A DNA stretch of 64,000 nt, from NCBI RefSeq assembly GCF_058153355.1, contig NZ_CM177019.1; one strand, written 5' to 3'. Positions within the stretch are counted from its first letter, which is position 1; each line of letters begins with the position of its first letter. Positions 1 through 35,400 of the stretch are shown piece by piece. Made by a program: the position numbers and the translations under genes. Under the pieces are notes generated by a model. That model had not been told where the DNA came from. It saw only the letters and a program-made list of their open reading frames with translations, and made no database searches.

Positions 1-563
1 GTTGCATAAGAGGCAAATGTGGAGTCGAGGATCACTGCACGTATGCCCTCACGATCACCCTGACCAACAACATCAAGAATATTCGCCCCGCCAATACTCT
101 GCCCGAACAGTACCAGTCGTTGTGGGTTTACATCACTGCGATGGCGCACCACATTGATGGCACTTAGCGTATCGTCCAGCAATCCGGCCTGAGACGGTGT
201 GCCTTTTGATTTACCAAACCCGCGATAATCAAACATAAAAACGTTGAAATTACGCTCGGGTAACCAACTGACCAGCGGCCAGTGGGCGGACATATTTCCG
301 GCATTGCCGTGAGCATGAATGATGGTTGCGATGGCGTTGTCAGCGGGGCCTGTCGAAGAAGGGATAAACCAGCCTTGCAGACGAGTACCGTCCTTAGCTG
401 TAAATTCGACGGATTCCGCCGACCAGGGGTCGGGACCGTAAATTTTGTCGTCGGGATAATAGAAGAAGTTGATGGCAACGCGCGGCACTAAATAAACGCA
501 GAAGGCAACAACAAAGAGAATAAACAGAATTTTGAGAACGCGTGTGTTCACTGGCAGTGCCAT
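1..563 (-). CDS. yfhR: alpha/beta-hydrolase family protein YfhR; 3' end lies beyond the window start
   Basis: Manual reverse-strand translation from ATG (complement of 561..563) gives MALPVNTRVLKILFILFVVAFCVYL... with HGNAGN and a GQSIGG nucleophile elbow (GxSxG). No stop before position 1. Position upstream of suhB matches K-12 synteny. Confidence 0.7.
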   Translation of the reverse strand, partial: MALPVNTRVLKILFILFVVAFCVYLVPRVAINFFYYPDDKIYGPDPWSAESVEFTAKDGTRLQGWFIPSSTGPADNAIATIIHAHGNAGNMSAHWPLVSWLPERNFNVFMFDYRGFGKSKGTPSQAGLLDDTLSAINVVRHRSDVNPQRLVLFGQSIGGANILDVVGQGDREGIRAVILDSTFASYA

Positions 564-707
564 AACCTTTCCTTGCGACTTCTTTATCATCCATTAATCG
601 GGGAAAGATGGTGGGAGAGTGACGAAAGAAAGTAAAGCAGAGCGGAAGCATTTCGGAATAGCGCCTGAAAGGCGAGGGCGGGTGAGAGAAATCACCCGCC
701 AGAGAAA

Positions 708-1511
708 TTAACGCTTCAGGGCGTCGCTTAACTCGTCACGCATGTTCGCCAGCATGGCTTTAACAACGCGCGGGTTACCGGCAACGATGTTACCGGTCAG
801 CATGTAGTTATGACCACCGGTGAAGTCGCTGACGATACCGCCCGCTTCACGAACCAGCAGCTCACCTGCGGCGAAATCCCACGGACGCAGACCGATTTCA
901 AAGAAACCGTCAACACGACCTGCGGCAACGTAAGCCAGATCCAGCGCCGCAGAACCAGTACGACGGAAGTCTGCACATTCGTTGAACAGTTTGCCGACGA
1001 TGTTGATGTAAGTGGTAGCGTACTGTTTTGCTTTGAACGGGAAGCCGGTCGCCAGAATAGTACCGTCGAGATCGCGAGCTGTGCTGCCGCGCAGACGGTA
1101 GCCGTTCAGCTGTGCGCCCTGACCGCGAGTCGCGGTGAACAGTTCGTTACGCATAGGATCATAAACCACAGCAACTTCAGTGCGGCCTTTGATACGAACG
1201 GCAATAGATACCGCGAAGTGCGGCAGGCGTTTGATAAAGTTGGTAGTGCCATCCAGTGGATCGATAACCCATTGAACATCCTGATCGGTACCTTCAAGTT
1301 CACCGCTTTCTTCGGTGATGATGGTGTGCTGTGGGTAAGATTTACGAATCGTGTCGATAATCACCGCTTCGGCAGCTTTATCTACGTTGGTCACGAAATC
1401 GTTACTGCCTTTCTGGCTCGCTTCTACAGCGTCCGGGGTTTCATAGTTTTTGGCAATTAAATTACCCGCCTTGCGCGCTGCGCGCACGGCGATGTTCAGC
1501 ATCGGATGCAT
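708..1511 (-). CDS. suhB: inositol monophosphatase / NusA-associated antiterminator factor SuhB
   Basis: 267-aa ORF with IMPase-family motifs (DPLDGT, WDFAAG); expected position next to trmJ. Confidence 0.95.
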   Translation of the reverse strand: MHPMLNIAVRAARKAGNLIAKNYETPDAVEASQKGSNDFVTNVDKAAEAVIIDTIRKSYPQHTIITEESGELEGTDQDVQWVIDPLDGTTNFIKRLPHFAVSIAVRIKGRTEVAVVYDPMRNELFTATRGQGAQLNGYRLRGSTARDLDGTILATGFPFKAKQYATTYINIVGKLFNECADFRRTGSAALDLAYVAAGRVDGFFEIGLRPWDFAAGELLVREAGGIVSDFTGGHNYMLTGNIVAGNPRVVKAMLANMRDELSDALKR

Positions 1512-1629
1512 CGGTCTCTCTCACTGGATGTTAAAGAACGGGAAAACGGCGCAGAGTATAGCAGCGAGATCGGCATCTGTCTTCGTTTTATGATAAGATG
1601 CGTGAATAATCTTTAGATGAAGAAAGACA

Positions 1630-2370
1630 ATGCTGCAAAATATTCGAATTGTGCTGGTGGAGACGTCACACACCGGTAATATGGGTTCTGTTGCCCGTGC
1701 CATGAAAACAATGGGCTTAACCAATCTGTGGCTGGTTAATCCACTAGTGAAACCTGACTCCCAGGCGATTGCTCTGGCAGCAGGGGCCAGCGATGTGATT
1801 GGTAATGCTCACATTGTCGATACACTCGACGAAGCGTTAGCCGGTTGTAGCCTGGTGGTTGGCACCAGTGCACGCTCGCGCACGCTGCCGTGGCCGATGC
1901 TCGACCCGCGCGAATGCGGTTTGAAAAGCGTCGCTGAAGCGGCAAATACGCCGGTGGCACTGGTTTTTGGTCGTGAGCGTGTCGGCTTGACCAATGAAGA
2001 GTTGCAAAAGTGCCATTATCATGTCGCCATTGCCGCTAACCCGGAATACAGTTCGCTTAACCTGGCGATGGCTGTTCAGGTTATTGCCTATGAAGTGCGC
2101 ATGGCCTGGCTGGCGACTCAGGAGAACAGCGAGCAGGTTGAACATGACGAGACGCCGTATCCGCTGGTCGATGATCTGGAACGTTTTTACGGTCATCTTG
2201 AACAAACGCTGCTGGCAACCGGCTTTATCCGTGAAAACCATCCGGGGCAGGTGATGAATAAGCTGCGTCGTCTGTTTACCCGTGCGCGCCCGGAAAGCCA
2301 GGAGTTGAATATCCTGCGCGGGATTCTGGCTTCTATTGAGCAGCAGAATAAAGGTAACAAGGCCGAATAA
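1630..2370 (+). CDS. trmJ: tRNA (cytidine/uridine-2'-O)-methyltransferase TrmJ (SpoU family)
   Basis: 246-aa ORF, SpoU/TrmH-like sequence; divergent from suhB as in K-12. Confidence 0.9.
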
Positions 2371-2377
2371 CCGAGGT

Positions 2378-2450
2378 TGCCTGATACGGCGCTTAACGCG
2401 TCTTGTCAGGCCTACATTGTACTGAACCCCTGGTCGGATAAAGTGTTTAC
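2378..2450. repeat. REP / BIME-like palindromic units
   Basis: gcctgatacggcgcttaacgcgtcttgtcaggcctac followed by a degenerate second unit (cggataaagtgtttacgccgcacccgaca); typical enterobacterial REP shape, located 3' of trmJ. Confidence 0.5.
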
Positions 2451-2524
2451 GCCGCACCCGACAACAGGTACAAACGCCACGATAAAAAAATGGCACTGAA
2501 GGTTAAATACCCGACTAAATCAGT

Positions 2525-2610
2525 CAAGTAAATAGTTGACCAATTTACTCGGGAATGTCAGACTTGACCCTGCTATGCAATACCCCCACTTTTACAATAA
2601 AAAACCCCGG
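2525..2610 (+). promoter_or_regulatory. iscR promoter / IscR autoregulatory operator region
   Basis: Sequence immediately upstream of iscR with TTGACC-type -35 candidates and AT-rich tract (aaatagttgaccaatttactcgggaatgtcagacttgaccc). IscR autorepression of isc is established knowledge; exact site boundaries not verified. Confidence 0.4.
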
Positions 2611-2639
2611 GCAGGGGCGAGTTTGAGGTGAAGTAAGAC

Positions 2640-3128
2640 ATGAGACTGACATCTAAAGGGCGCTATGCCGTGACCGCAATGCTTGACGTTGCGCTCAACT
2701 CTGAAGCGGGCCCGGTACCGTTGGCTGATATTTCCGAACGTCAGGGAATTTCCCTTTCTTATCTGGAACAACTGTTTTCCCGTCTGCGTAAAAATGGTCT
2801 GGTTTCCAGCGTACGCGGACCAGGCGGTGGTTATCTGTTAGGCAAAGATGCCAGCAGCATCGCCGTTGGCGAAGTGATTAGCGCCGTTGATGAATCTGTA
2901 GATGCCACCCGTTGTCAGGGTAAAGGCGGCTGCCAGGGGGGCGATAAATGCCTGACCCACGCGCTTTGGCGTGATTTGAGCGACCGTCTCACCGGTTTTC
3001 TCAACAACATTACTTTAGGCGAACTGGTTAATAACCAGGAAGTGCTGGATGTATCTGGTCGTCAGCATACTCACGACGCGCCACGCACCCGCACACAAGA
3101 CGCGATCGACGTTAAGTTACGCGCTTAA
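2640..3128 (+). CDS. iscR: Fe-S cluster regulator IscR (Rrf2 family)
   Basis: 162-aa [22 protein letters not shown]... with helix-turn-helix N-terminus and Cys cluster ([13 protein letters not shown]). Confidence 0.95.
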
Positions 3129-3149
3129 TTTAACCGTCCTGTTTCGTGT

Positions 3150-3225
3150 TGCATCTGCGTTGACTGCACATACTCACTCCGGTCACTTACTTATGTAAGC
3201 TCCCGGAGATTCGTAAGTTTGTCAA
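3150..3225. repeat. ERIC/IRU-like element fragment in the iscR–iscS spacer
   Basis: gtcacttacttatgtaagctcccggagattc resembles the ERIC core (GTCACTTACTTATGTAAGCTCCTGGGGATTCAC as recalled); the spacer is 240 nt. Confidence 0.4.
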
Positions 3226-3368
3226 CTTGCTGAAACCCGAAACAGTTAGGTTAAAGATAACAAGATATTAGAATCAGGCCGGGGCGTCTCGCGCTCCGTA
3301 AACACGGTCGTACATCCAGCCGGTAGCCTGGTTCCTTGCATTGAGTGATGTACGGAGTTTATAGAGCA

Positions 3369-4583
3369 ATGAAATTACCGATTTATCTCGACTACTCCGC
3401 AACCACGCCGGTGGACCCGCGTGTTGCCGAGAAAATGATGCAGTTTATGACGATGGATGGAACTTTTGGTAACCCGGCCTCCCGTTCTCACCGTTTCGGC
3501 TGGCAGGCTGAAGAAGCGGTAGATATCGCTCGTAATCAGATTGCCGATCTGGTTGGCGCTGATCCGCGAGAAATCGTCTTTACCTCTGGTGCTACCGAAT
3601 CTGACAACCTGGCGATCAAAGGTGCTGCTAACTTTTATCAGAAAAAAGGCAAGCACATCATCACCAGCAAAACCGAACACAAAGCGGTACTGGATACCTG
3701 CCGTCAGCTGGAGCGCGAAGGTTTTGAAGTCACTTACCTGGCACCGCAGCGTAACGGTATTATCGACCTGAAAGAACTCGAAGCAGCGATGCGTGATGAC
3801 ACCATCCTTGTTTCCATCATGCACGTAAATAACGAAATCGGCGTGGTGCAGGATATCGCGGCTATCGGTGAAATGTGCCGTGCTCGTGGCATTATCTATC
3901 ACGTTGATGCAACCCAGAGCGTGGGCAAACTGCCTATCGACCTGAGCCAGTTGAAAGTTGACCTGATGTCTTTCTCCGGTCACAAAATCTACGGCCCGAA
4001 AGGTATCGGTGCGCTGTATGTGCGTCGTAAACCGCGCGTACGTATCGAAGCACAAATGCACGGCGGCGGTCACGAGCGCGGTATGCGTTCCGGTACTCTG
4101 CCTGTTCACCAGATCGTCGGGATGGGCGAAGCCTATCGCATCGCAAAAGAAGAGATGGCGACCGAGATGGAACGCCTGCGCGGCCTGCGTAACCGTCTGT
4201 GGAACGGCATCAAAGATATCGAAGAAGTTTACCTGAACGGTGACCTGGAACACGGTGCGCCGAACATTCTCAACGTCAGCTTTAACTACGTTGAAGGTGA
4301 GTCGCTGATTATGGCGCTGAAAGACCTTGCGGTTTCTTCCGGTTCTGCCTGTACGTCAGCAAGCCTCGAACCGTCCTACGTGCTGCGCGCGCTGGGGCTG
4401 AACGACGAGCTGGCACATAGCTCTATCCGTTTCTCTTTAGGTCGTTTTACTACTGAAGAAGAGATCGACTACACCATCGAGTTAGTTCGTAAATCCATCG
4501 GTCGTCTGCGTGACCTTTCTCCGCTGTGGGAAATGTACAAGCAGGGCGTGGATCTGAACAGCATCGAATGGGCACATCATTAA
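3369..4583 (+). CDS. iscS: cysteine desulfurase IscS
   Basis: ORF track 3345..4583; conserved start [16 protein letters not shown] at 3369 (404 aa); PLP-dependent class V aminotransferase motifs ([12 protein letters not shown]). Confidence 0.95.
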
Positions 4584-4610
4584 TCGGTATCGGAATCAGG
4601 AGAATTTATA

Positions 4611-4997
4611 ATGGCTTACAGCGAAAAAGTTATCGATCATTACGAGAATCCGCGTAACGTGGGTTCCTTCGACAACAACGACGAGAACGTGGGCAGCGGC
4701 ATGGTGGGTGCACCGGCCTGTGGCGACGTGATGAAGTTGCAGATTAAAGTCAACGATGAAGGTATCATTGAAGACGCGCGTTTTAAAACTTACGGCTGCG
4801 GTTCCGCTATCGCTTCCAGCTCCCTGGTCACCGAATGGGTGAAAGGGAAGTCTCTCGACGAAGCACAGGCGATCAAAAACACCGATATTGCTGAAGAACT
4901 TGAACTGCCGCCGGTGAAAATTCACTGTTCTATTCTGGCAGAAGACGCGATCAAAGCCGCCATTGCGGACTATAAAAGCAAACGTGAAGCAAAATAA
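4611..4997 (+). CDS. iscU: Fe-S cluster scaffold IscU
   Basis: 128-aa ORF with the three conserved Cys (GAPACGDV, GCGSAIASS, HCSILAEDA). Confidence 0.95.
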   Translation: MAYSEKVIDHYENPRNVGSFDNNDENVGSGMVGAPACGDVMKLQIKVNDEGIIEDARFKTYGCGSAIASSSLVTEWVKGKSLDEAQAIKNTDIAEELELPPVKIHCSILAEDAIKAAIADYKSKREAK

Positions 4998-7816: not shown

Positions 7817-8152
7817 ATGCCAAAGATTGTTATTTTGCCTCATCAGGATCTCTGTCCTGATGGCGCTGTTCTGGAAGCGAATAGCGGTGAAACCATTCTC
7901 GACGTTGCGCTGCGTAACGGCATCGAGATTGAACACGCCTGTGAAAAATCCTGTGCTTGCACCACCTGCCACTGCATCGTTCGTGAAGGTTTTGATTCGC
8001 TGCCGGAAAGCTCAGAGCAGGAAGACGACATGCTGGACAAAGCCTGGGGGCTGGAGCCGGAAAGCCGTTTAAGCTGCCAGGCGCGCGTTACCGACGAAGA
8101 TTTAGTGGTCGAAATTCCGCGTTACACTATCAACCATGCGCGTGAGCATTAA
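7817..8152 (+). CDS. fdx: [2Fe-2S] ferredoxin Fdx
   Basis: 111-aa ORF with Cys cluster ([12 protein letters not shown] ... C). Confidence 0.95.
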
Positions 8153-8163
8153 CAGAGGTTAGT

Positions 8164-8364
8164 ATGGGACTTAAGTGGACCGATAGCCGCGAAATTGGCG
8201 AAGCACTGTACGATGCATATCCCGATCTTGATCCGAAAACGGTTCGATTCACCGATATGCATCAGTGGATTTGCGATCTGGAAGATTTCGACGACGACCC
8301 GCAGGCGTCCAACGAGAAAATCCTCGAAGCGATTTTATTAGTCTGGCTGGACGAAGCCGAGTGA
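8164..8364 (+). CDS. iscX: Fe-S assembly protein IscX
   Basis: 66-aa acidic ORF at the expected position after fdx. Confidence 0.9.
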
Positions 8365-8369
8365 TTTCC

Positions 8370-8500
8370 GCGTCATGCTTCACGCCGCAGATGCGTTGGC
8401 TGCGCTCGTTCACCCCAGTCACATAGTTATCTATGCTCCTGGGGCTTCACTCACTTGCCGCCTTCCTGCAACGCGAATCATTTAGCGGAAAAATCCTGGG
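8370..8500. repeat. ERIC/IRU element (enterobacterial repetitive intergenic consensus)
   Basis: cgttcaccccagtcacatagttatctatgctcctggggcttcac plus flanking cacgccgcagatgcgttggctgcgctc match the ERIC imperfect palindrome as recalled; lies in the iscX–pepB spacer. Confidence 0.55.
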
Positions 8501-8541
8501 GCTGCCAACTGGCGGCCCTTTTACAAATAAGGATAACTAAA

Positions 8542-9825
8542 ATGACAGAAGCGATGAAGATTACCCACTCGACCCAACCTGCCGACGCGCGCTGGGGAGA
8601 AAAAGCGACTTACAGCATTAATAATGATGGTATTACCCTGCATTTGAACGGGGCAGACGATCTGGGGCTGATCCAGCGTGCGGCGCGCAAGATTGACGGT
8701 CTGGGTATCAAGCATGTTCAGCTAAGCGGTGAAGGCTGGGATGCGGATCGTTGCTGGGCATTCTGGCAAGGTTACAAAGCCCCGAAAGGCACGCGTAAAG
8801 TGGAGTGGCCGGATCTGGACGATGCCCAGCGTCAGGAACTGGATAACCGCCTGATGATCATCGACTGGGTGCGTGACACCATCAACGCACCAGCAGAAGA
8901 ACTGGGGCCATCGCAACTGGCACAGCGTGCTGTTGATCTGATCAGCAACGTCGCAGGCGATCGTGTGACTTACCGGATCACCAAAGGTGAAGATCTTCGT
9001 GATCAAGGTTATATGGGGCTGCACACTGTCGGGCGTGGTTCAGAACGTTCCCCGGTATTGCTGGCGCTGGATTACAACCCAACTGGCGATAAAGAAGCGC
9101 CGGTGTACGCGTGCCTGGTAGGTAAAGGCATCACCTTTGATTCCGGCGGCTACAGCATCAAACAGACCGCGTTTATGGACTCAATGAAGTCTGACATGGG
9201 CGGTGCGGCAACGGTTACCGGGGCGCTGGCATTTGCCATTACGCGCGGTCTGAACAAGCGTGTGAAGCTGTTCCTCTGCTGTGCGGATAACCTGATTAGC
9301 GGCAACGCGTTCAAACTGGGGGATATCATTACCTATCGCAACGGTAAAAAAGTCGAAGTCATGAACACCGATGCGGAAGGGCGTCTGGTTCTGGCAGATG
9401 GCCTGATTGACGCCAGTGCGCAGAAACCGGAACTGATTATCGATGCCGCGACACTCACCGGTGCGGCGAAAACCGCGCTGGGTAATGATTATCACGCGCT
9501 GTTCAGTTTTGACGATGCATTGGCCGGTCGCCTACTGGAGAGTGCCGCCCAGGAGAACGAACCGTTCTGGCGTCTGCCGCTGGCGGAGTTCCACCGTAGC
9601 CAGCTGCCATCTAACTTTGCGGAACTGAACAATACCGGAAGCGCGGCGTATCCGGCGGGTGCAAGTACGGCGGCGGGCTTCCTGTCGCACTTTGTTGAGA
9701 ACTATAAACAAGGTTGGCTGCATATCGACTGTTCGGCGACTTACCGTAAAGCACCGGTTGAACAGTGGTCTGCGGGTGCGACCGGGCTGGGTGTGCGCAC
9801 GATTGCTAATCTGTTAACGGCGTAA
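8542..9825 (+). CDS. pepB: peptidase B (M17 leucyl aminopeptidase family) PepB
   Basis: Conserved start [10 protein letters not shown] at 8542 (427 aa); M17 motif NTDAEGRL present. Confidence 0.9.
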
Positions 9826-27150: not shown

Positions 27151-27207
27151 CAACGACACGAATATAGCGTGCGTTGTCTGATGATTTATAAAAATGAGGC
27201 TTTAAAC

Positions 27208-28680
27208 ATGGTACCTGTGGTCGCGCTTGTCGGGCGCCCTAACGTAGGAAAATCCACGTTATTTAACCGTCTAACTCGCACCCGAGATGCGCTGGTTGCG
27301 GATTTCCCGGGTCTGACTCGTGACCGTAAGTACGGTCGTGCGGAAATTGAAGGCCGCGAGTTTATTTGTATTGATACCGGCGGGATTGACGGAACAGAAG
27401 ACGGTGTAGAAACCCGCATGGCGGAACAGTCGCTGCTGGCGATTGAAGAAGCGGACGTCGTACTGTTTATGGTGGATGCGCGCGCGGGCCTGATGCCTGC
27501 GGATGAAGCGATTGCTAAACATCTGCGCTCCCGCGAAAAACCGACCTTCCTGGTGGCAAACAAAACCGATGGTCTGGATCCGGATCAGGCCGTTGTTGAT
27601 TTTTATTCGCTCGGTTTAGGTGAAATCTATCCTATCGCCGCGTCTCACGGTCGTGGCGTATTAAGTCTGCTGGAGCACGTGCTGTTGCCGTGGATGGAAG
27701 ATATCGCACCACAAGAAGAAGTGGATGAAGACGCTGAGTACTGGGCGCAATTTGAAGCGGAAGAGAACGGCGAAGAAGAAGAGGAAGACGACTTTGACCC
27801 GCAAAGTCTGCCAATCAAACTGGCGATAGTGGGTCGTCCTAACGTCGGTAAGTCTACACTCACTAACCGTATCCTTGGCGAAGAACGCGTCGTAGTTTAC
27901 GACATGCCGGGCACTACGCGTGACAGTATCTACATTCCAATGGAACGCGATGGGCGTGAGTATGTACTCATTGACACTGCGGGCGTACGTAAACGCGGCA
28001 AAATCACCGATGCGGTAGAGAAATTCTCCGTAATCAAAACATTGCAGGCGATTGAAGATGCCAACGTGGTGATGTTGGTGATTGATGCTCGCGAAGGTAT
28101 TTCCGATCAGGATCTCTCCCTGCTGGGCTTTATTCTCAATAGTGGGCGCTCACTTGTGATTGTAGTGAACAAGTGGGACGGCCTGAGCCAGGAAGTGAAA
28201 GAGCAAGTAAAAGAGACGCTGGACTTCCGTCTGGGCTTTATCGACTTCGCCCGTGTGCATTTTATCTCTGCATTACACGGCAGTGGCGTTGGTAATCTGT
28301 TTGAATCAGTGCGTGAAGCGTATGACAGCTCCACCCGTCGTGTGGGGACATCTATGCTGACGCGTATCATGACCATGGCGGTTGAAGATCACCAGCCGCC
28401 GCTGGTTCGCGGGCGTCGTGTGAAGCTGAAATATGCCCACGCCGGTGGTTACAATCCGCCGATTGTGGTGATTCACGGCAACCAAGTGAAAGACCTGCCT
28501 GATTCGTACAAACGCTACTTGATGAATTACTTCCGCAAGTCTCTGGACGTGATGGGTACGCCGATTCGTATTCAGTTCAAAGAAGGGGAAAACCCATATG
28601 CGAACAAGCGTAACACCCTGACGCCGACCCAGATGCGCAAGCGTAAGCGTTTGATGAAGCATATTAAGAAAAGTAAGTAA
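27208..28680 (+). CDS. der: ribosome-biogenesis GTPase Der (EngA)
   Basis: ATG at 27208 gives 490 aa; two G domains (GRPNVGKST twice) and a basic C-terminus. Confidence 0.95.
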
Positions 28681-28742
28681 TCACTTATCTGGTTTCCCTT
28701 TCCAAACGGAGAGGGAAACTGAACAACAGGCGAGGAGTATTT

Positions 28743-28958
28743 ATGGAACTCAACTGCCCAACCTGCCATAACCCTCTCGAACGCAACGGTGAAACTGCCC
28801 ACTGTGCAACTTGTGCCAAAGATTTCACCATTCAGGCGCTTTGTCCTGACTGCCATCAGCCATTACAGGTGTTAAAAGCTTGTGGTGCAGTAGATTATTT
28901 CTGCCAGCATGGGCACGGTTTAATATCCAAAAAGCGCGTTGAATTTATTGTTGCTTAA
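28743..28958 (+). CDS. yfgJ: zinc-ribbon protein YfgJ
   Basis: 71-aa ORF with CxxC...CxxC pairs. Confidence 0.85.
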   Translation: MELNCPTCHNPLERNGETAHCATCAKDFTIQALCPDCHQPLQVLKACGAVDYFCQHGHGLISKKRVEFIVA

Positions 28959-29149
28959 TATTATTTAAATATATGGTGTAATCATTTGTATTCATAATAT
29001 AAATGATTGCATCCTATTTTATTTGTTGAAACGCAAATGTAAGTGAGCGAAATCACTGTGTTATAAATTTAAGATTATATTTAGTTTTCCTGGCGTGCCT
29101 TTCTGAATAATCTGGAATAGAATATTAGAGCTAATTTTAAGCATTATTA
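28959..29149 (+). promoter_or_regulatory. AT-rich leader / probable promoter region of the accessory insert
   Basis: ~190 bp of AT-rich sequence immediately upstream of the sinH-like gene; no specific promoter elements resolved. Confidence 0.35.
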
Positions 29150-31342
29150 ATGTCACAGGGGATGTGCATGCTGCGATGGAAACGCTGTATTATGCTAACA
29201 TTTATCTCTGGAGCTGCTTTTGCGGCTCCAGAGATAAATGTTGAGCATAAAGAATCGTTACCTGATTTAGGTAGTCAGGCCGCACAACAGGAAGAGCAAA
29301 CTAACAAGGGTAAATCGCTAAAAGAGCGTGGTGCCGATTACGTCATTAACTCTGCCACGCAAGGGTTTGAAAACCTGACACCCGAGGCGCTGGAGTCCCA
29401 GGCCAGAAGCTATCTGCAAAGTCAAATTACCTCTACGACACAATCTTATATTGAGGATACACTCTCCCCCTACGGTAAGGTCCGAACGAATCTTTCTCTT
29501 GGTCAGGGCGGCGATCTGGATGGCAGTTCCATCGATTATTTTGTTCCCTGGTATGATAATCAAACTACTGTTTATTTCAGCCAATTTTCTGCACAACGAA
29601 AAGAAGATCGTACGATCGGGAATATTGGGCTTGGTGTAAGACATAATTTTGATAGATGGTTATTGGGTGGAAATATATTTTATGATTATGATTTTACCCG
29701 TGGGCATCGCCGTTTAGGTTTAGGTGCCGAAGCCTGGACTGATTATTTAAAATTCTCTGGCAACTATTATCATCCGCTTTCTGACTGGAAAGACTCCGAA
29801 GATTTCGATTTTTATGAGGAGCGTCCTGCGCGCGGTTGGGATATTCGCGCCGAAGCCTGGCTACCCGCTTACCCGCAGCTTGGCGGTAAAATCGTTTTCG
29901 AACAGTATTACGGTGATGAAGTCGCGCTTTTTGGCACCGATAATCTGGAGAAAGATCCCTTCGCCGTCACGCTGGGTGTGAAATACCAGCCCGTACCGCT
30001 CATTGCCGTAGGAACGGATTTCAAAGCCGGCACTGGCGATAATACCGATCTTTCTGTTAACGCAACGCTGAACTACCAGTTTGGCGTCCCGCTCAAAGAC
30101 CAGCTTGATCCTGACAAAGTAAGCGCGGCTCACTCGCTCATGGGCAGCCGTCACGACTTTGTTGAACGTAACAACTTTATTGTTCTGGAATACAAAGAGA
30201 AAGATCCCCTCGATGTCACTTTGTGGCTGAAAGCTGATGCGACGAATGAACATCCCGAGTGCGTGATTAAAGATACGCCAGAAGCAGCCATCGGGCTGGA
30301 AAAATGTAAGTGGACCATTAACGCGCTCATTAATCATCATTACAAAATCGTTGCTGCCTCCTGGCAGGCGAAAAACAATGCTGCACGTACGCTGGTGATG
30401 CCGGTTATCAAAGAAAACACCCTTACTGAAGGGAACAACAACCACTGGAATCTGGTACTGCCTGCCTGGCAGTACAGCTCTGATAAAGCCGACCAGGAAA
30501 AACTCAATACCTGGCGGGTACGCCTGGCGCTGGAAGATGAAAAAGGCAATCGGCAGAACTCCGGCGTGGTGGAAATCACCGTTCAGCAGGATCGTAAAAT
30601 TGAGCTCATCGTTAACAACATCGCCAATGTACCGGATGAGAACAATCACAGCCACGAAGCCAGCGCGCAAGCGGATGGTGTAGATGGTGTCGTCATGGAT
30701 CTCGACGTTACCGATAGCTTTGGCGACAACACTGACCGTAACGGTAATGTCTTGCCGCAGGATAATCTCAGCCCGCAGCTGTTTGATGCCAACGATAAAA
30801 AAGTGACGCTGGCGAATAAACCCTGCACCACCGAAGTGCCGTGCGTTTTTATCGCCAAACAAGATAAAGAAAAGGGGACCGTTACGCTCTCCAGTACGTT
30901 GCCCGGCACCTTCCGCTGGAAAGCGAAAGCCGCCCCTTATGATGACAGTAACTATGTTGACGTAACGTTCCTGGGTTCTGACATCGGCGGGCTGAATGCT
31001 TTTATCTACCGCGTTGGTGCAGCTAAGCCCGTCAATCTTATCGGCAACAAAGAACCGTTGCCTCTCAATAGCCGCTATCGCTTTGTGCTGTGGCGCGACG
31101 CTAACAAAGACGGCGTGTTCCAGCTTTCTGAGAAGCTCACTGACGACGAGATGAAACAGTATGACTATCAGTGGGAATTCACGGGGAATAGCGTAAATGG
31201 CAATACCGGCGCGCAAACCAATACCACGAACGTCGATATAGAGATCCCGGCAACCAACAAGGAAGCGGCAGCAAAATTTAATGCTCAGGTAACCGATGGC
31301 GTGCAGGGATACGGTTTGCAGGTCAATTACAGCAAGAAATAG
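29150..31342 (+). CDS. sinH: intimin/invasin-family inverse autotransporter (SinH-like)
   Basis: 730-aa ORF. Residues ~150–340 match the intimin/invasin beta-barrel translocator (…ERPARGWDIRAEAWLPAYPQLGGKIVFEQYYGDEVALFG…GVKYQPVPLIAVGTDFKAGTGDNTDLSVNATLNYQFG…SRHDFVERNNFIVLEYKEKD, compare intimin …LIYEQYYGDNVALF…SRYDLVQRNNNIILEYKK). Signal peptide present; first in-frame start may be downstream of 29150. Confidence 0.8.
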   Translation: MSQGMCMLRWKRCIMLTFISGAAFAAPEINVEHKESLPDLGSQAAQQEEQTNKGKSLKERGADYVINSATQGFENLTPEALESQARSYLQSQITSTTQSYIEDTLSPYGKVRTNLSLGQGGDLDGSSIDYFVPWYDNQTTVYFSQFSAQRKEDRTIGNIGLGVRHNFDRWLLGGNIFYDYDFTRGHRRLGLGAEAWTDYLKFSGNYYHPLSDWKDSEDFDFYEERPARGWDIRAEAWLPAYPQLGGKIVFEQYYGDEVALFGTDNLEKDPFAVTLGVKYQPVPLIAVGTDFKAGTGDNTDLSVNATLNYQFGVPLKDQLDPDKVSAAHSLMGSRHDFVERNNFIVLEYKEKDPLDVTLWLKADATNEHPECVIKDTPEAAIGLEKCKWTINALINHHYKIVAASWQAKNNAARTLVMPVIKENTLTEGNNNHWNLVLPAWQYSSDKADQEKLNTWRVRLALEDEKGNRQNSGVVEITVQQDRKIELIVNNIANVPDENNHSHEASAQADGVDGVVMDLDVTDSFGDNTDRNGNVLPQDNLSPQLFDANDKKVTLANKPCTTEVPCVFIAKQDKEKGTVTLSSTLPGTFRWKAKAAPYDDSNYVDVTFLGSDIGGLNAFIYRVGAAKPVNLIGNKEPLPLNSRYRFVLWRDANKDGVFQLSEKLTDDEMKQYDYQWEFTGNSVNGNTGAQTNTTNVDIEIPATNKEAAAKFNAQVTDGVQGYGLQVNYSKK

Positions 31343-31391
31343 GGTCGGCGCCATGGCTGATCGGGCCACCGCTGAATATTAATCAAGGAGA

Positions 31392-32390
31392 GTGTTTATG
31401 AAACCTGATATGAAACGTGGCCTGACAAAAGTCGCGCTCGCGTTGATGCTGGCTGGATACTGTGCCGTACCAGCCGCTATGGCGGAAGATGCCGCCTGGG
31501 TCGCCAGTGGAGCGACCGCTGAATTCGAAGGGACTATACCCTGGCTCTATCGCGAAGGGGGGAATGCCACGATTAACTCGGAAGATGCGGATCACATTAA
31601 AGTGACGTCTGATGGTAAAGGGACCCGTCCTCCAGGTAGCGAGACGGATAAACGCCTTTACTCAGGGGATACCATCACGCTGGGTTGGGATATCGGCGAT
31701 ACCGAAGGGGATATTGATGATGGTCCCGCAGGCATTGATGCGAAAACGACGGCCACTATCAAATGGTACAGCTACAGCAATAATGCGGGTGGCGATAAAA
31801 CTGAGCTGACCGCAGCGGCAGGCAAGACGAGTTATAAACTCACTGATGACGATCGTGGGCGTTATATCGGTGTTGAAATCCAGCCCATCACCCAGACCGG
31901 TAATCCCTTCGAGGGAACGTCGCTGACTCTGCTGGATATTTCAACGGCCAGCGGTGGCGGCAGCGATACGGACAATGTCGATCCCGGCCCGGTTGTGAAC
32001 CAGAATCTGAAAGTTGCCATCTTCGAGAAAGGCACCACTACCAACCTTATCGGTGGTAACACGGCCATTGCGCTTAATAAAACATATGTGGCCAAACTGT
32101 ACTCGGATGAAAACCAGAACGATAAATACGACGCAGGTACGGATATGGACGTTACCGCTAACTATGACTTTGCATGGGTCTTTAACGGTAACAGTAAACA
32201 ACTCCGTGCTGCAGGCGGTATTGCTAATGCCAGCTTCGATAACAATGACATTGTTATCCCGCAAACTAACGAAGAAGCAAGAACCAGCCTTAACGGTAGT
32301 GACCGTAATGGTAAGAGTGGTCTTGCGATCCCAGCAAACGGCGACGGCGTTCAGGGCTATACGCTGTCAATTATTTACAAACACCACTAA
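31392..32390 (+). CDS. sinI: secreted protein paralogous to the SinH C-terminal domain (SinI-like)
   Basis: 332-aa ORF with signal peptide (KVALALMLAGYCAVPAAMA). C-terminus shares clear motifs with the SinH C-terminus: YDFAWVFNGNS / YDYQWEFTGNS, IVIPQTNEEAR / IEIPATNKEAA, DGVQGYTLSIIY / DGVQGYGLQVNY. Confidence 0.6.
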   Translation: MFMKPDMKRGLTKVALALMLAGYCAVPAAMAEDAAWVASGATAEFEGTIPWLYREGGNATINSEDADHIKVTSDGKGTRPPGSETDKRLYSGDTITLGWDIGDTEGDIDDGPAGIDAKTTATIKWYSYSNNAGGDKTELTAAAGKTSYKLTDDDRGRYIGVEIQPITQTGNPFEGTSLTLLDISTASGGGSDTDNVDPGPVVNQNLKVAIFEKGTTTNLIGGNTAIALNKTYVAKLYSDENQNDKYDAGTDMDVTANYDFAWVFNGNSKQLRAAGGIANASFDNNDIVIPQTNEEARTSLNGSDRNGKSGLAIPANGDGVQGYTLSIIYKHH

Positions 32391-32499
32391 TGCGCACGAC
32401 TGCATTCCCGTAGGGGAATGCTGTTTTCCGCCTGTTTTGCTTAGCGACGCGTTAAGCAAAACAGGTTGATGTTTTGTTTATCATGTTGGAGTTTTCTAC

Positions 32500-35400
32500 A
32501 TGTCGGTATGTCTGAAACCAGGGAAAATCATTATGCTTCTGGGCATGTTGGCAGCGTTTATGCTGTCTGACTTTGCACGAGCAGGGGTGGAATGGCAGAC
32601 ATATCCTGATTCTACAGGCGAGTTTAACGGAACCGTTCCTTTTGCCGACAGCGCCAGCGTACCCGTCTATCAGGGCAGTGTTCAGCTTAATCCTGGCGAA
32701 TCTCATGATGTCGGGTTTTCTGCTAAACCGAATGAATTTAGCGTTGACGATGACGCCGCTAACCTGATTGTTGCTAATCCTCAGGACAATGAAGGCGACC
32801 AGTTTTCCACACCACCTGCGCTGCGCTGGGAAAATCAAACACCCCCTACCGTCAGCCTGGTGTGGGCCGATGCCGCCACGCCCGATGTACCCCTTAACCC
32901 ACAACCCATTGCTAACCGTAGCTTTTGTGCTCAGGGGCTCGCCGGACGCTCGCTGGTGGCCTGGCCGCAGATTGATGCGCAGCAAACCCTCCCACTGCTC
33001 TACCTGTTGACCTCGACCGGCTATCCCTATGCGGGGACGGTGGCGCTGGTGGACCAGAAAGTGACCCTGAACATCGCGCCCGCGCAGGGCGATTTAATCT
33101 CGGTGAGCGCCAGCGGTTATAACGAAACGATCGCGGCGGCAAAAACCACCGTTGGCGACACCATCACGCTCACCGTCACCACTAAAGATTGTCAGGGCAA
33201 CGTCGCGGGTAATATTCCGTTTATTATCAAACGTAAAGATGCTGAAAATCGCCAGGGGGCAGTGAATAATAGTGCGCCAGTGGTACTGGATAGCACCGAG
33301 TTAACGACGACGGCTACCGAATACCATGGCACCTCTGATGCCAACGGCACGGCCACCATCACGGTGAGCCAACCGAACGGCCCTGGCGTCAAAACGCCAC
33401 TGGTGGTCAGCATTTCCGGCATTGCGCAAACCAGCGAAACCGCGGTGATTTTTACGGTGCTCACCAGCCCGGACGCGGCGCAGGCTACGATGTGGGGCCA
33501 TATGGCGGAAACGGTAGAAGCGCACGGTTACACCTTCAGTCGACCAAAGCTGGCGGCAGAAGTCAGCAATGAAAGCGCCACGGTCGTCGATCACAACGAA
33601 ACCTGGTCCACCTTCACCTGGAGCGGCGCAGATAACCACTGCACCGTGCTGCCCGGCATGCGCCACTTCGGCGCGCTGGCGACCGTTATCCCCACATCGG
33701 TGCAGACAGTCCTTGGCTGGCCGATGCAGGGGGATTATTACTGGTCATCGCTGGCGGGCACCACCGGGCAGCACCATGCGGCGGATGTCTCTAACCGTGG
33801 TGAAACGCAAAAGCCGGATAGCACCCCGTTTCTTGTAAGCTGCGTGGATAAACCCGCGCCTGATGTCGAGCCGAAAATCGTCCTTACGCCCGAAAACTAT
33901 GATGATACGGCACAGGCGATGAAATCGCAGGTGGGCGAAGACGCCACGATGCGTCTGACGATCACCGACAATAAAAATAACGATCAACCACTGGCGTATT
34001 ACTACTTCTCGCTGCATCTGGATGACGGCGTTAACCGCAAAAATCAAACCGATTCCGCCTGGGAAGCCCATCCGGTGCAGATTACTGGTGGTTCGAATTT
34101 GCAACAGGTTGATGCTCACACCTATGAAGGCATGACCGATGTCAACGGTCAGGCTTCGCTAACCCTGAGTCAGCCCGACGGCGCAGGCGTGAAAACCCAT
34201 ATCACGGCGAAAATGCGCAGCAATTTTACGGCTACAGATGCCAAAGACGTGATTTTTACTGTGATCACCAGCCCGGACAGCGACAAGGCGCGGATGTGGG
34301 GCCATATGCGCGGCATTGTTGTATCTGGCAGTCTGTTCAAACGCCCAGTGCTGGCGGATGAAACTGAGCATGAACTGGGATCGGTGCGGGAAAATAACGA
34401 AGACTGGGCGCTGTTCGATCAAGACACCAGTATGCAGGCTGAATGCGGCGTCGGCCATACGCCAAGTCAGAGTGGGCTGGAAAGCCTTTTTTCAGCCCAT
34501 CCCGGTAACGCGATTGGCACTGAGTATGGCTGGCCCACCGCACAACAGAACTACCTAAGCGCGGTGGAGCAAGCCACGCATTCATCGGTGAATTTGGCGA
34601 ACGGAAACGTCGACAGCTACCCCGGCTTTAAGCGAAATTACCTCTCCTGTTCGGGCAATGAGATGGTCGCGAAGGTTGAAGTGAGCACCGATCACGATGT
34701 CACCCCTGGCAGCAAAGCGCAGGCCAAAGTGGGAGACACCGTCGTGATGACCGTGCGTACGGTTAACGCGCTCAATAATACCCCCGTTCCCTTTACTGCC
34801 TTCACCATCACTAAAGGCATGGGGTATAACCGAGCGGGGCTGGTGAGCGGGTTTGATGACCCGAGCAGCGGCGCAATCTCGATGAATGGCACGCAATACG
34901 GCACATCGCAGCCGTCGATGGTTTATACGGGTACGACAGATGCACAAGGCGTGGCAACGGTCGAAATAGAGCAACCACAAGGCGTCGGGCTAAGAACGGC
35001 GCTGAGCGTAACGCCGGTAAATTCCTACCTGCCGAATACCGTTAATTACAGCGTTATTTTCACCACCCCAACCAGCCCGGACGTTATTGGCGCGCAGATG
35101 TGGGGCCATATGGATGAAACGATTACTGTTGATTCATTAACCTTTACCCGGCCTAAGCTGGCAGCAGAAATCGCCAGTCCGGATGGCACACTAACGGAAA
35201 AAAACGAAGTCTGGGCGCGCGTTAGCCAGGCCAGTACGGCCATTACCAGTAAAGGCGGTTGCGGAGCCAATATGCTGCCGCGTCGCTCACAGCTCAGTGC
35301 GCTCTATGACGCTAATAACGGCAATGCGGTGCAAACCACACACGGCTGGCCGACGCAGCGTCAGCCCTACTGGAGCAGTTCCCCCGCGGATGTAACGCCG

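Follow-up and report, generated by a model that had tools for sequence, protein, structure and literature searches.

SinI of an Escherichia coli locus carries a C-terminal paralogue of the membrane-distal domain of the inverse autotransporter SinH

Introduction

A stretch of 64,000 nucleotides from NCBI RefSeq assembly GCF_058153355.1 (contig NZ_CM177019.1), referred to below as the window, was analyzed around the adjacent genes sinH and sinI. The stretch is an Escherichia coli chromosomal locus with 98.7% identity to strain EC42405 across 3.35 kb, and its genes are ordered bamB, der, sinH, sinI and a ratA-like gene (Table 1). RefSeq names the last three products "intimin-like inverse autotransporter SinH", "SinI family autotransporter-associated protein" and "adhesion domain-containing protein". 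A sequence-only reading of this DNA had proposed that the C-termini of SinH and SinI are paralogous, and that SinI either competes with SinH for its ligand or docks onto it. The results reported here strongly support the view that the C-terminal domain of SinI is an ancient paralogue of D3, the membrane-distal domain of SinH, and that the homology is confined to D3.

Table 1. Positions in the window of the features of the sinH-sinI-ratA region
Feature	Position	Strand	Basis
sinH, intimin-like inverse autotransporter	29150..31342	+	730-aa ORF from ATG 29150
SinH distal domain D3 (residues ~606-730), duplicated in SinI	30965..31339	+	
sinI, SinI family autotransporter-associated protein, 330 aa	31398..32390	+	partner_SinI profile, homologue lengths, AGGAG
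SinI predicted Sec signal peptide MKPDMKRGLTKVALALMLAGYCAVPAAMA, cleavage before ED	31398..31484	+	read from sequence
SinI N-terminal Ig-like "partner" module, motifs T-A-E-F-E-G-T-I-P-W and G-D-T-E-G-D-I-D	31485..31949	+	
SinI C-terminal domain, SinH D3 paralogue	31983..32387	+	alignments, profiles; secondary-structure order as in D3
Two tandem terminator-like hairpins 3' of sinI (32402-32421 and 32430-32466), T-rich tail after each	32402..32466	+	terminator scan
ratA-like giant adhesin, 2696 aa	32500..40590	+	NCBIfam RatA-like, 5386 bits

Homology of the SinH and SinI C-termini

The three motif pairs quoted in the sequence-only reading (YDYQWEFTGNS/YDFAWVFNGNS, IEIPATNKEAA/IVIPQTNEEAR and DGVQGYGLQVNY/DGVQGYTLSIIY) were all found, and they are collinear in the two proteins. 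BLASTP gave an alignment (E=2e-10) of SinH residues 628-727 to SinI residues 217-329, in which 33% of the 115 columns are identical. The Smith-Waterman score of the C-terminal segments was 129, well above that of shuffled controls; shuffling of the SinI segment gave 32.1±5.8 with a maximum of 66, and none of 2000 shuffles reached 129. The score of the full-length proteins was likewise reached by none of 500 shuffles. Each protein was also matched by the profile of the other's family: SinH 624-727 matched the final 104 positions of the NCBIfam model partner_SinI (E=5e-23), and SinI 213-331 matched positions 623-729 of inverse_SinH (E=4e-11).

Structure prediction of each protein separately gave an AlphaFold2 model of SinH D3 with a pLDDT of 86.9 and one of mature SinI with a pLDDT of 89.3 (pTM 0.78). 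Compared along the alignment, the two models have the same order of secondary structure, namely four strands, a helix at the TN-x-EA motif, and a last strand at GYxLxVxY. The motifs that the SinI copy retains are the most conserved ones of SinH D3 (NL[IL]G, W, IPxTNxEA and DGVQG[YF]). The proposed paralogy is therefore borne out by BLASTP, the shuffles, the profile cross-matches, the structure models and the identity matrix described below. The homology stood and the proposed length of about 90 residues did not, since the shared part is an entire domain, some 110-125 residues long; a hidden Markov model (HMM) built from both families delimits the unit as SinH 607-730 and SinI 196-330 (330-aa numbering).

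Similarity between SinH and SinI beyond D3 was rejected: D1-D2 of SinH and the N-terminal module of SinI showed none by hhalign (probability 0.2%). An internal duplication within SinI was hinted at by Smith-Waterman alignment, in which 6 of 1000 shuffles reached the score, and was rejected on an hhalign probability of 0.1%. A third copy of the domain in the window was also rejected, as an HMM search of its six-frame open reading frames (ORFs) matched SinH and SinI only.

When the domain profile was run against 1.84 billion representative proteins, 78 matches were obtained at E≤0.001. Those examined were SinH-like transporters and SinI-like proteins of ~300-390 aa, with the domain last in both. 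The profile also gave partial matches to SpaA-type prealbumin-like repeats in long surface proteins.

Gene calls and family membership

The RefSeq-style start of SinH is probably M7, at position 29168. An antisense ORF of 502 aa on the minus strand (29861-31369) spans most of sinH and is probably a shadow ORF rather than a gene. The mechanically called sinI ORF begins two codons before the start in Table 1, at a GTG at 31392, which gives the 332 aa assigned in the sequence-only reading. SinI is most likely 330 aa long from the ATG at 31398, as in its RefSeq homologues (319-330 aa), and AGGAG lies 7 nt 5' of this ATG.

Family membership was judged with the curated NCBIfam models inverse_SinH (NF033423), partner_SinI (NF040711) and ZirU_fam (NF040485). 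SinH scored 1478 bits with the equivalog NF033423, whose cutoff is 999. Its barrel was recognized by Pfam IAT_beta at residues 69-342 (E=5e-106), and a PDB sequence search matched this barrel, and no other part of SinH, to invasin (4e1t) and intimin (4e1s). With an IAT_beta barrel followed by a C-terminal Ig-like passenger, SinH is a type Ve inverse autotransporter (IAT).

SinI scored 377 bits with NF040711 (cutoff 165) over residues 8-329, and the adjacency that this family calls for was found, sinI starting 55 nt 3' of sinH. The same adjacency was seen at seven other loci (L001, L003, L004, L005, L007, L008 and L009). Its description as a barrel-less, signal-peptide-bearing protein directly 3' of sinH was supported. 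SinI is predicted to consist of two Ig-like domains behind a signal-peptide-like N-terminus. A Pfam search of SinI gave no significant domain, and a PDB sequence search gave no match. Read by eye, the signal peptide has a basic n-region followed by a hydrophobic core, with A-M-A just ahead of the predicted cleavage site; it is without a canonical lipobox, and the Cys that follows is nearly invariant in the family, though not entirely so. The signal peptide is unusually conserved family-wide, with L-A-L-x-x-A-G-Y invariant in alignment A2.

SinI scored 26 bits with ZirU_fam, below the cutoff of 100. The match, which concerns the N-module region, was restricted to residues 83-216 (E=8e-6) and is a distant similarity, not membership. 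Nor did SinI have the marks of a TpsA protein, as Pfam found no two-partner secretion (TPS) domain and the NPNGI/NPNL motifs were not seen in it.

Conservation and divergence of the pair

An IAT gene with one or two adjacent SinI-like genes was found in Escherichia, Salmonella, Citrobacter, Leminorella, Budvicia and metagenomic relatives. The pair lies in the der...xseA context in Salmonella (L007), Citrobacter (L008) and an enterobacterium (L009), and in other contexts in Leminorella (L004), Budvicia (L003) and the metagenomic contigs L001 and L005. At every such locus the last domain of the transporter matches the last domain of its own downstream partner. The identity of tip and partner was 36-45% in sinH loci and 48% in L001 (E=3e-30).

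In the identity matrix orthologues were closer than paralogues; between E. coli and Leminorella, the SinH tips were 58% identical and the SinI tips 50%, and the triplets of Budvicia and L005 paired one-to-one at 46-54%. The duplication thus predates these lineages and is not kept up by ongoing gene conversion, and recent conversion between the copies was rejected on these grounds. A possible exception is L001, where transporter and partner tips are 48% identical and the transporter tip is just 27-34% identical to other SinH tips. Values of dN/dS were 0.03-0.18 across all segments, which indicates purifying selection on both copies; positive selection was rejected, as dN/dS was low everywhere. 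On these sequence comparisons the D3 duplication is judged to be old and under selection.

Between genera, identity was 73-80% for the barrel, 64-79% for D1-D2, 57-66% for D3 and 34-49% for SinI. This order of divergence fits exposed, fast-evolving surface parts. Pairwise identities of D3 and of the SinI C-terminal domain were correlated (r=0.92), a value that is confounded by phylogeny and linkage and was not used as evidence.

Two further sequences were noted. A SinI-like protein labelled Candidatus Hamiltonella defensa (P0149) was without an adjacent inverse autotransporter. In a SinH-like passenger (P0142), T, P, A, S, R and H were systematically replaced by I, M, V, F, L, C and Y, so that damaged, converted or mis-decoded reads seem a likelier source of it than natural variation.

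An N-terminal module common to SinI and Rat proteins

At sinH-type loci the mature chain of SinI and Rat proteins starts with (G)-WQ followed by T-x-x-[IVF]-x-G-T-x-P; some 45 residues on, D-T-E-G-D-[ILV]-[DF] is found, and then a Trp. Of the 25 partner proteins examined, 19 have the pattern T-x-x-[IVF]-x-G-x-x-P (among the 16 SinI-like and other small partners, 9-12), and none of the nine transporters examined has it. Three of the six partners missed by the strict pattern (L002, L006) have near variants such as NVIRGDAP. The background rate of the pattern was 2×10⁻⁴ per residue in the six-frame ORFs of the window.

Carriers include Salmonella RatA and RatB, invasin-domain proteins encoded 3' of SinH-like transporters, and the E. 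coli RatA-like protein, in which the SinI N-module motifs, among them DNEGDQF, lie at the mature N-terminus. The motif-bearing regions are at 31485-31720 (SinI) and ~32581-32860 (RatA-like) of the window, and others occur at L001, L003-L005 and L007-L009. The SinI N-module aligned with six Rat N-termini by hhalign over 74 columns (probability 81%, E=1.2e-5). When the N-module profile was used to search a database, most of the matches were SinI fragments. As the Rat N-terminus has been called highly divergent (Heinz 2016, PMC4943183), the link between the SinI and Rat N-modules may be unreported.

These comparisons suggest that the N-module may serve these proteins in common as an "address" or docking domain, whereas the payload that follows at the C-terminus varies. 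The proposed payloads would be the SinH-tip copy for SinI, BIg21/InvE_AD repeats for Rat proteins, and invasin-like domains for others.

Transcription signals and the allelic block in E. coli

No terminator-like site was detected by the terminator scan within the 55-nt gap between sinH and sinI, and the hairpin pair 3' of sinI (Table 1) had a combined RNA fold of -44.6 kcal/mol (z=-5.2). Together these are consistent with the co-transcription of sinH and sinI stated in a review (PMC12525524). The arrangement of these signals suggests that sinH and sinI form one transcription unit and that ratA expression is regulated or separate.

The window from ~30770 to 34500 was compared with L011 (strain 317), L012 and L013. 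Nucleotide identity to strain 317 was about 85-97% over the barrel, D1 and most of D2, and fell to 61-79% from about nt 30770 on, across D3 and sinI and into ratA. Many genomes aligned by megablast just to query position 2051. Synonymous sites were saturated in the D3-sinI-ratA block and dN/dS was low. Within E. coli, D3, sinI and ratA therefore diverge together, forming a single allelic block of old standing; with dS saturated, the divergent alleles are old or imported rather than fast-evolving by positive selection.

A search with window positions 27169-32500 found the sinH-sinI region in 1749 of 5426 complete E. coli genomes, 18 of which matched at ≥95% identity, so that the allele of the window is uncommon. 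The neighboring der gene was just ~90-97% identical to those of two compared E. coli strains (L011 and L014), and an atypical Escherichia lineage may be the source of the window.

Relation to known systems

The paralogy of SinH and SinI and the idea of a partner are already known, both from the literature and from the NCBI curated family. For the similarity itself, Kingsley 2003 is the source cited in Heinz 2016 (PMC4943183). Heinz 2016 proposed a ZirT-like role for SinH, in which it translocates the proteins encoded with it, Rat-like ones among them. In Goh 2019 (PMC6714894), E. coli IatB (=SinH) and EcSMS35_2660 (=SinI) are likened to the Zir proteins in the same way. The Salmonella CS54 island pair SinH/SinI (SivH/SivI) and E. 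coli IatB/EcSMS35_2660 represent the same locus as that described here, der-sinH-sinI-ratA(-ratB)-xseA. Nothing essential differs from them, except that the allele of the window is uncommon and that the similarity is here narrowed to D3. The points added here, and worth pursuing, are the N-module common to SinI and Rat proteins and the cassette of D3, sinI and ratA.

The Salmonella ZirT/ZirS/ZirU system resembles the pair in having an IAT-type barrel protein followed by barrel-less signal-peptide proteins. Its partners share sequence with the passenger of the translocator, according to Prehna 2012 as cited in Heinz 2016 (PMC4943183), and D3 and the SinI C-terminal domain do so as well. Secretion of ZirS is ZirT-dependent, the protein is released as an exoprotein, and the role of ZirTS is that of an antivirulence modulator (PMC2270342). 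Type Vb TPS systems (TpsA/TpsB, FHA/FhaC) likewise have separate transporter and cargo genes and a conserved N-terminal cargo element as a possible address; they differ in that the barrel here is IAT_beta and not Omp85/POTRA, and in that the candidate address is an Ig-like module. D3 is comparable with the receptor-binding tips of intimin and invasin in being the membrane-distal domain of an inverse-autotransporter passenger.

Proposed function of SinI

With a probability of roughly 45%, sinH and sinI are considered to encode an inverse-autotransporter/partner pair of the ZirT-ZirS/ZirU type, in which SinI would be a SinH-dependent accessory protein presenting a second copy of the tip. SinI would cross the inner membrane by Sec and would be recognized by SinH via the shared N-module. 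By analogy with ZirS and ZirT, it might then be displayed or released in a SinH-dependent manner, and its D3-like domain would form an extra copy of the SinH tip at the surface or outside the cell. This copy may bind the same host or matrix ligand, giving higher avidity or a soluble version of the tip, or it may pair with SinH D3. The earlier suggestion that SinI competes or docks is accordingly plausible, and lies near the published hypotheses of Heinz 2016 and Goh 2019. For docking, the N-terminus of SinI appears a likelier site than the duplicated domain, as the N-module, and not the D3-like domain, is what SinH-linked partners have in common; the D3 copy would then be the payload. A bolder reading, which must be regarded as doubtful, is that the N-module is an address recognized by SinH, with the role that the TPS domain has, in a type Ve two-partner pathway, and that D3 and SinI/RatA are exchanged between strains as a matched cassette. 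If so, the tip and the free copy would cooperate at the cell surface.

Several points weigh against a partner pair of this kind. IatB forms biofilm without the downstream gene (Goh 2019, PMC6714894), so SinI is not required for display of SinH. Structural work cited in Heinz 2016 (PMC4943183) argues against passage of a second protein through an IAT barrel that is already occupied. SinI falls far below the ZirU_fam cutoff. SinI-like genes also occur without an adjacent IAT gene: L002 has a single SinI-like gene of 357 aa (8001-9074) beside ribosomal-protein operons in a 2.6-Mb genome, and L006, possibly a second case, has three tandem copies of ~380-390 aa (57-4928) on a 5.4-kb contig. The allelic block is compatible with functional matching, and also with plain linkage, which alone could account for it. 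Among the papers that were read, none reports an experiment on the localisation, secretion, binding or function of SinI.

SinI might instead be a secreted soluble decoy or modulator whose D3-like domain competes with surface SinH for ligand and so tunes or switches off adhesion. The retention of the most conserved D3 motifs in the copy fits a shared binding function, the release of ZirS and the antivirulence role of ZirTS offer a precedent, and SinI evolves fast, as exposed proteins do. Those motifs could, however, be structural, SinH D3 is without a known ligand, and an N-module held in common with anchored-type Rat adhesins suggests attachment rather than release; we regard a decoy as unlikely. 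We give still less credence to SinI as a periplasmic Ig-fold chaperone or assembly factor that stays in the periplasm and binds unfolded SinH or RatA passenger like-with-like. Such chaperones are a known class, discussed in Heinz 2016 (PMC4943183), and SinI would suit the part in having a signal peptide without barrel or anchor and in being co-transcribed with sinH. Against this, SinH/IatB works without the downstream gene (PMC6714894). No part of the locus diverges faster than SinI, whose identity between genera is 34-49% where the barrel has 73-80%, and its alleles within E. coli are deeply divergent; a housekeeping chaperone would not usually show either feature.

If the similarity were a functionless remnant left when the sinH 3' end was partially duplicated in tandem, the copies would be expected to lie adjacent and in the same orientation, as they do here. 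This explanation, and a chance or compositional match, are effectively refuted by the shuffles (none of 2000), the profile match (E=5e-23), the identity matrix and dN/dS. Six or more genera have kept both copies, at dN/dS values of 0.07-0.18; SinI also has an intact signal peptide and, besides the D3 paralogue, another domain that is well folded in the model.

Significance

The paralogy by itself is nothing new for the field. SinH Ig-like domain 3 (residues 602-724), to which D3 corresponds, has been described as a "receptor binding domain" and, as SinH-3, is a vaccine antigen in development against extraintestinal pathogenic E. coli (Xing 2023, PMC9937491, in which SinI is not mentioned). The same operon encodes a second protein with a 33-45% identical copy of the vaccine domain. 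This raises the questions of whether antibodies against SinH-3 recognize SinI as well, whether ligand or antibody is sequestered by SinI, and whether adhesion is in reality the work of a SinH-SinI(-RatA) assembly. SinH and SinI are also a widespread pair suited to asking whether inverse autotransporters serve separate proteins as transporters or platforms.

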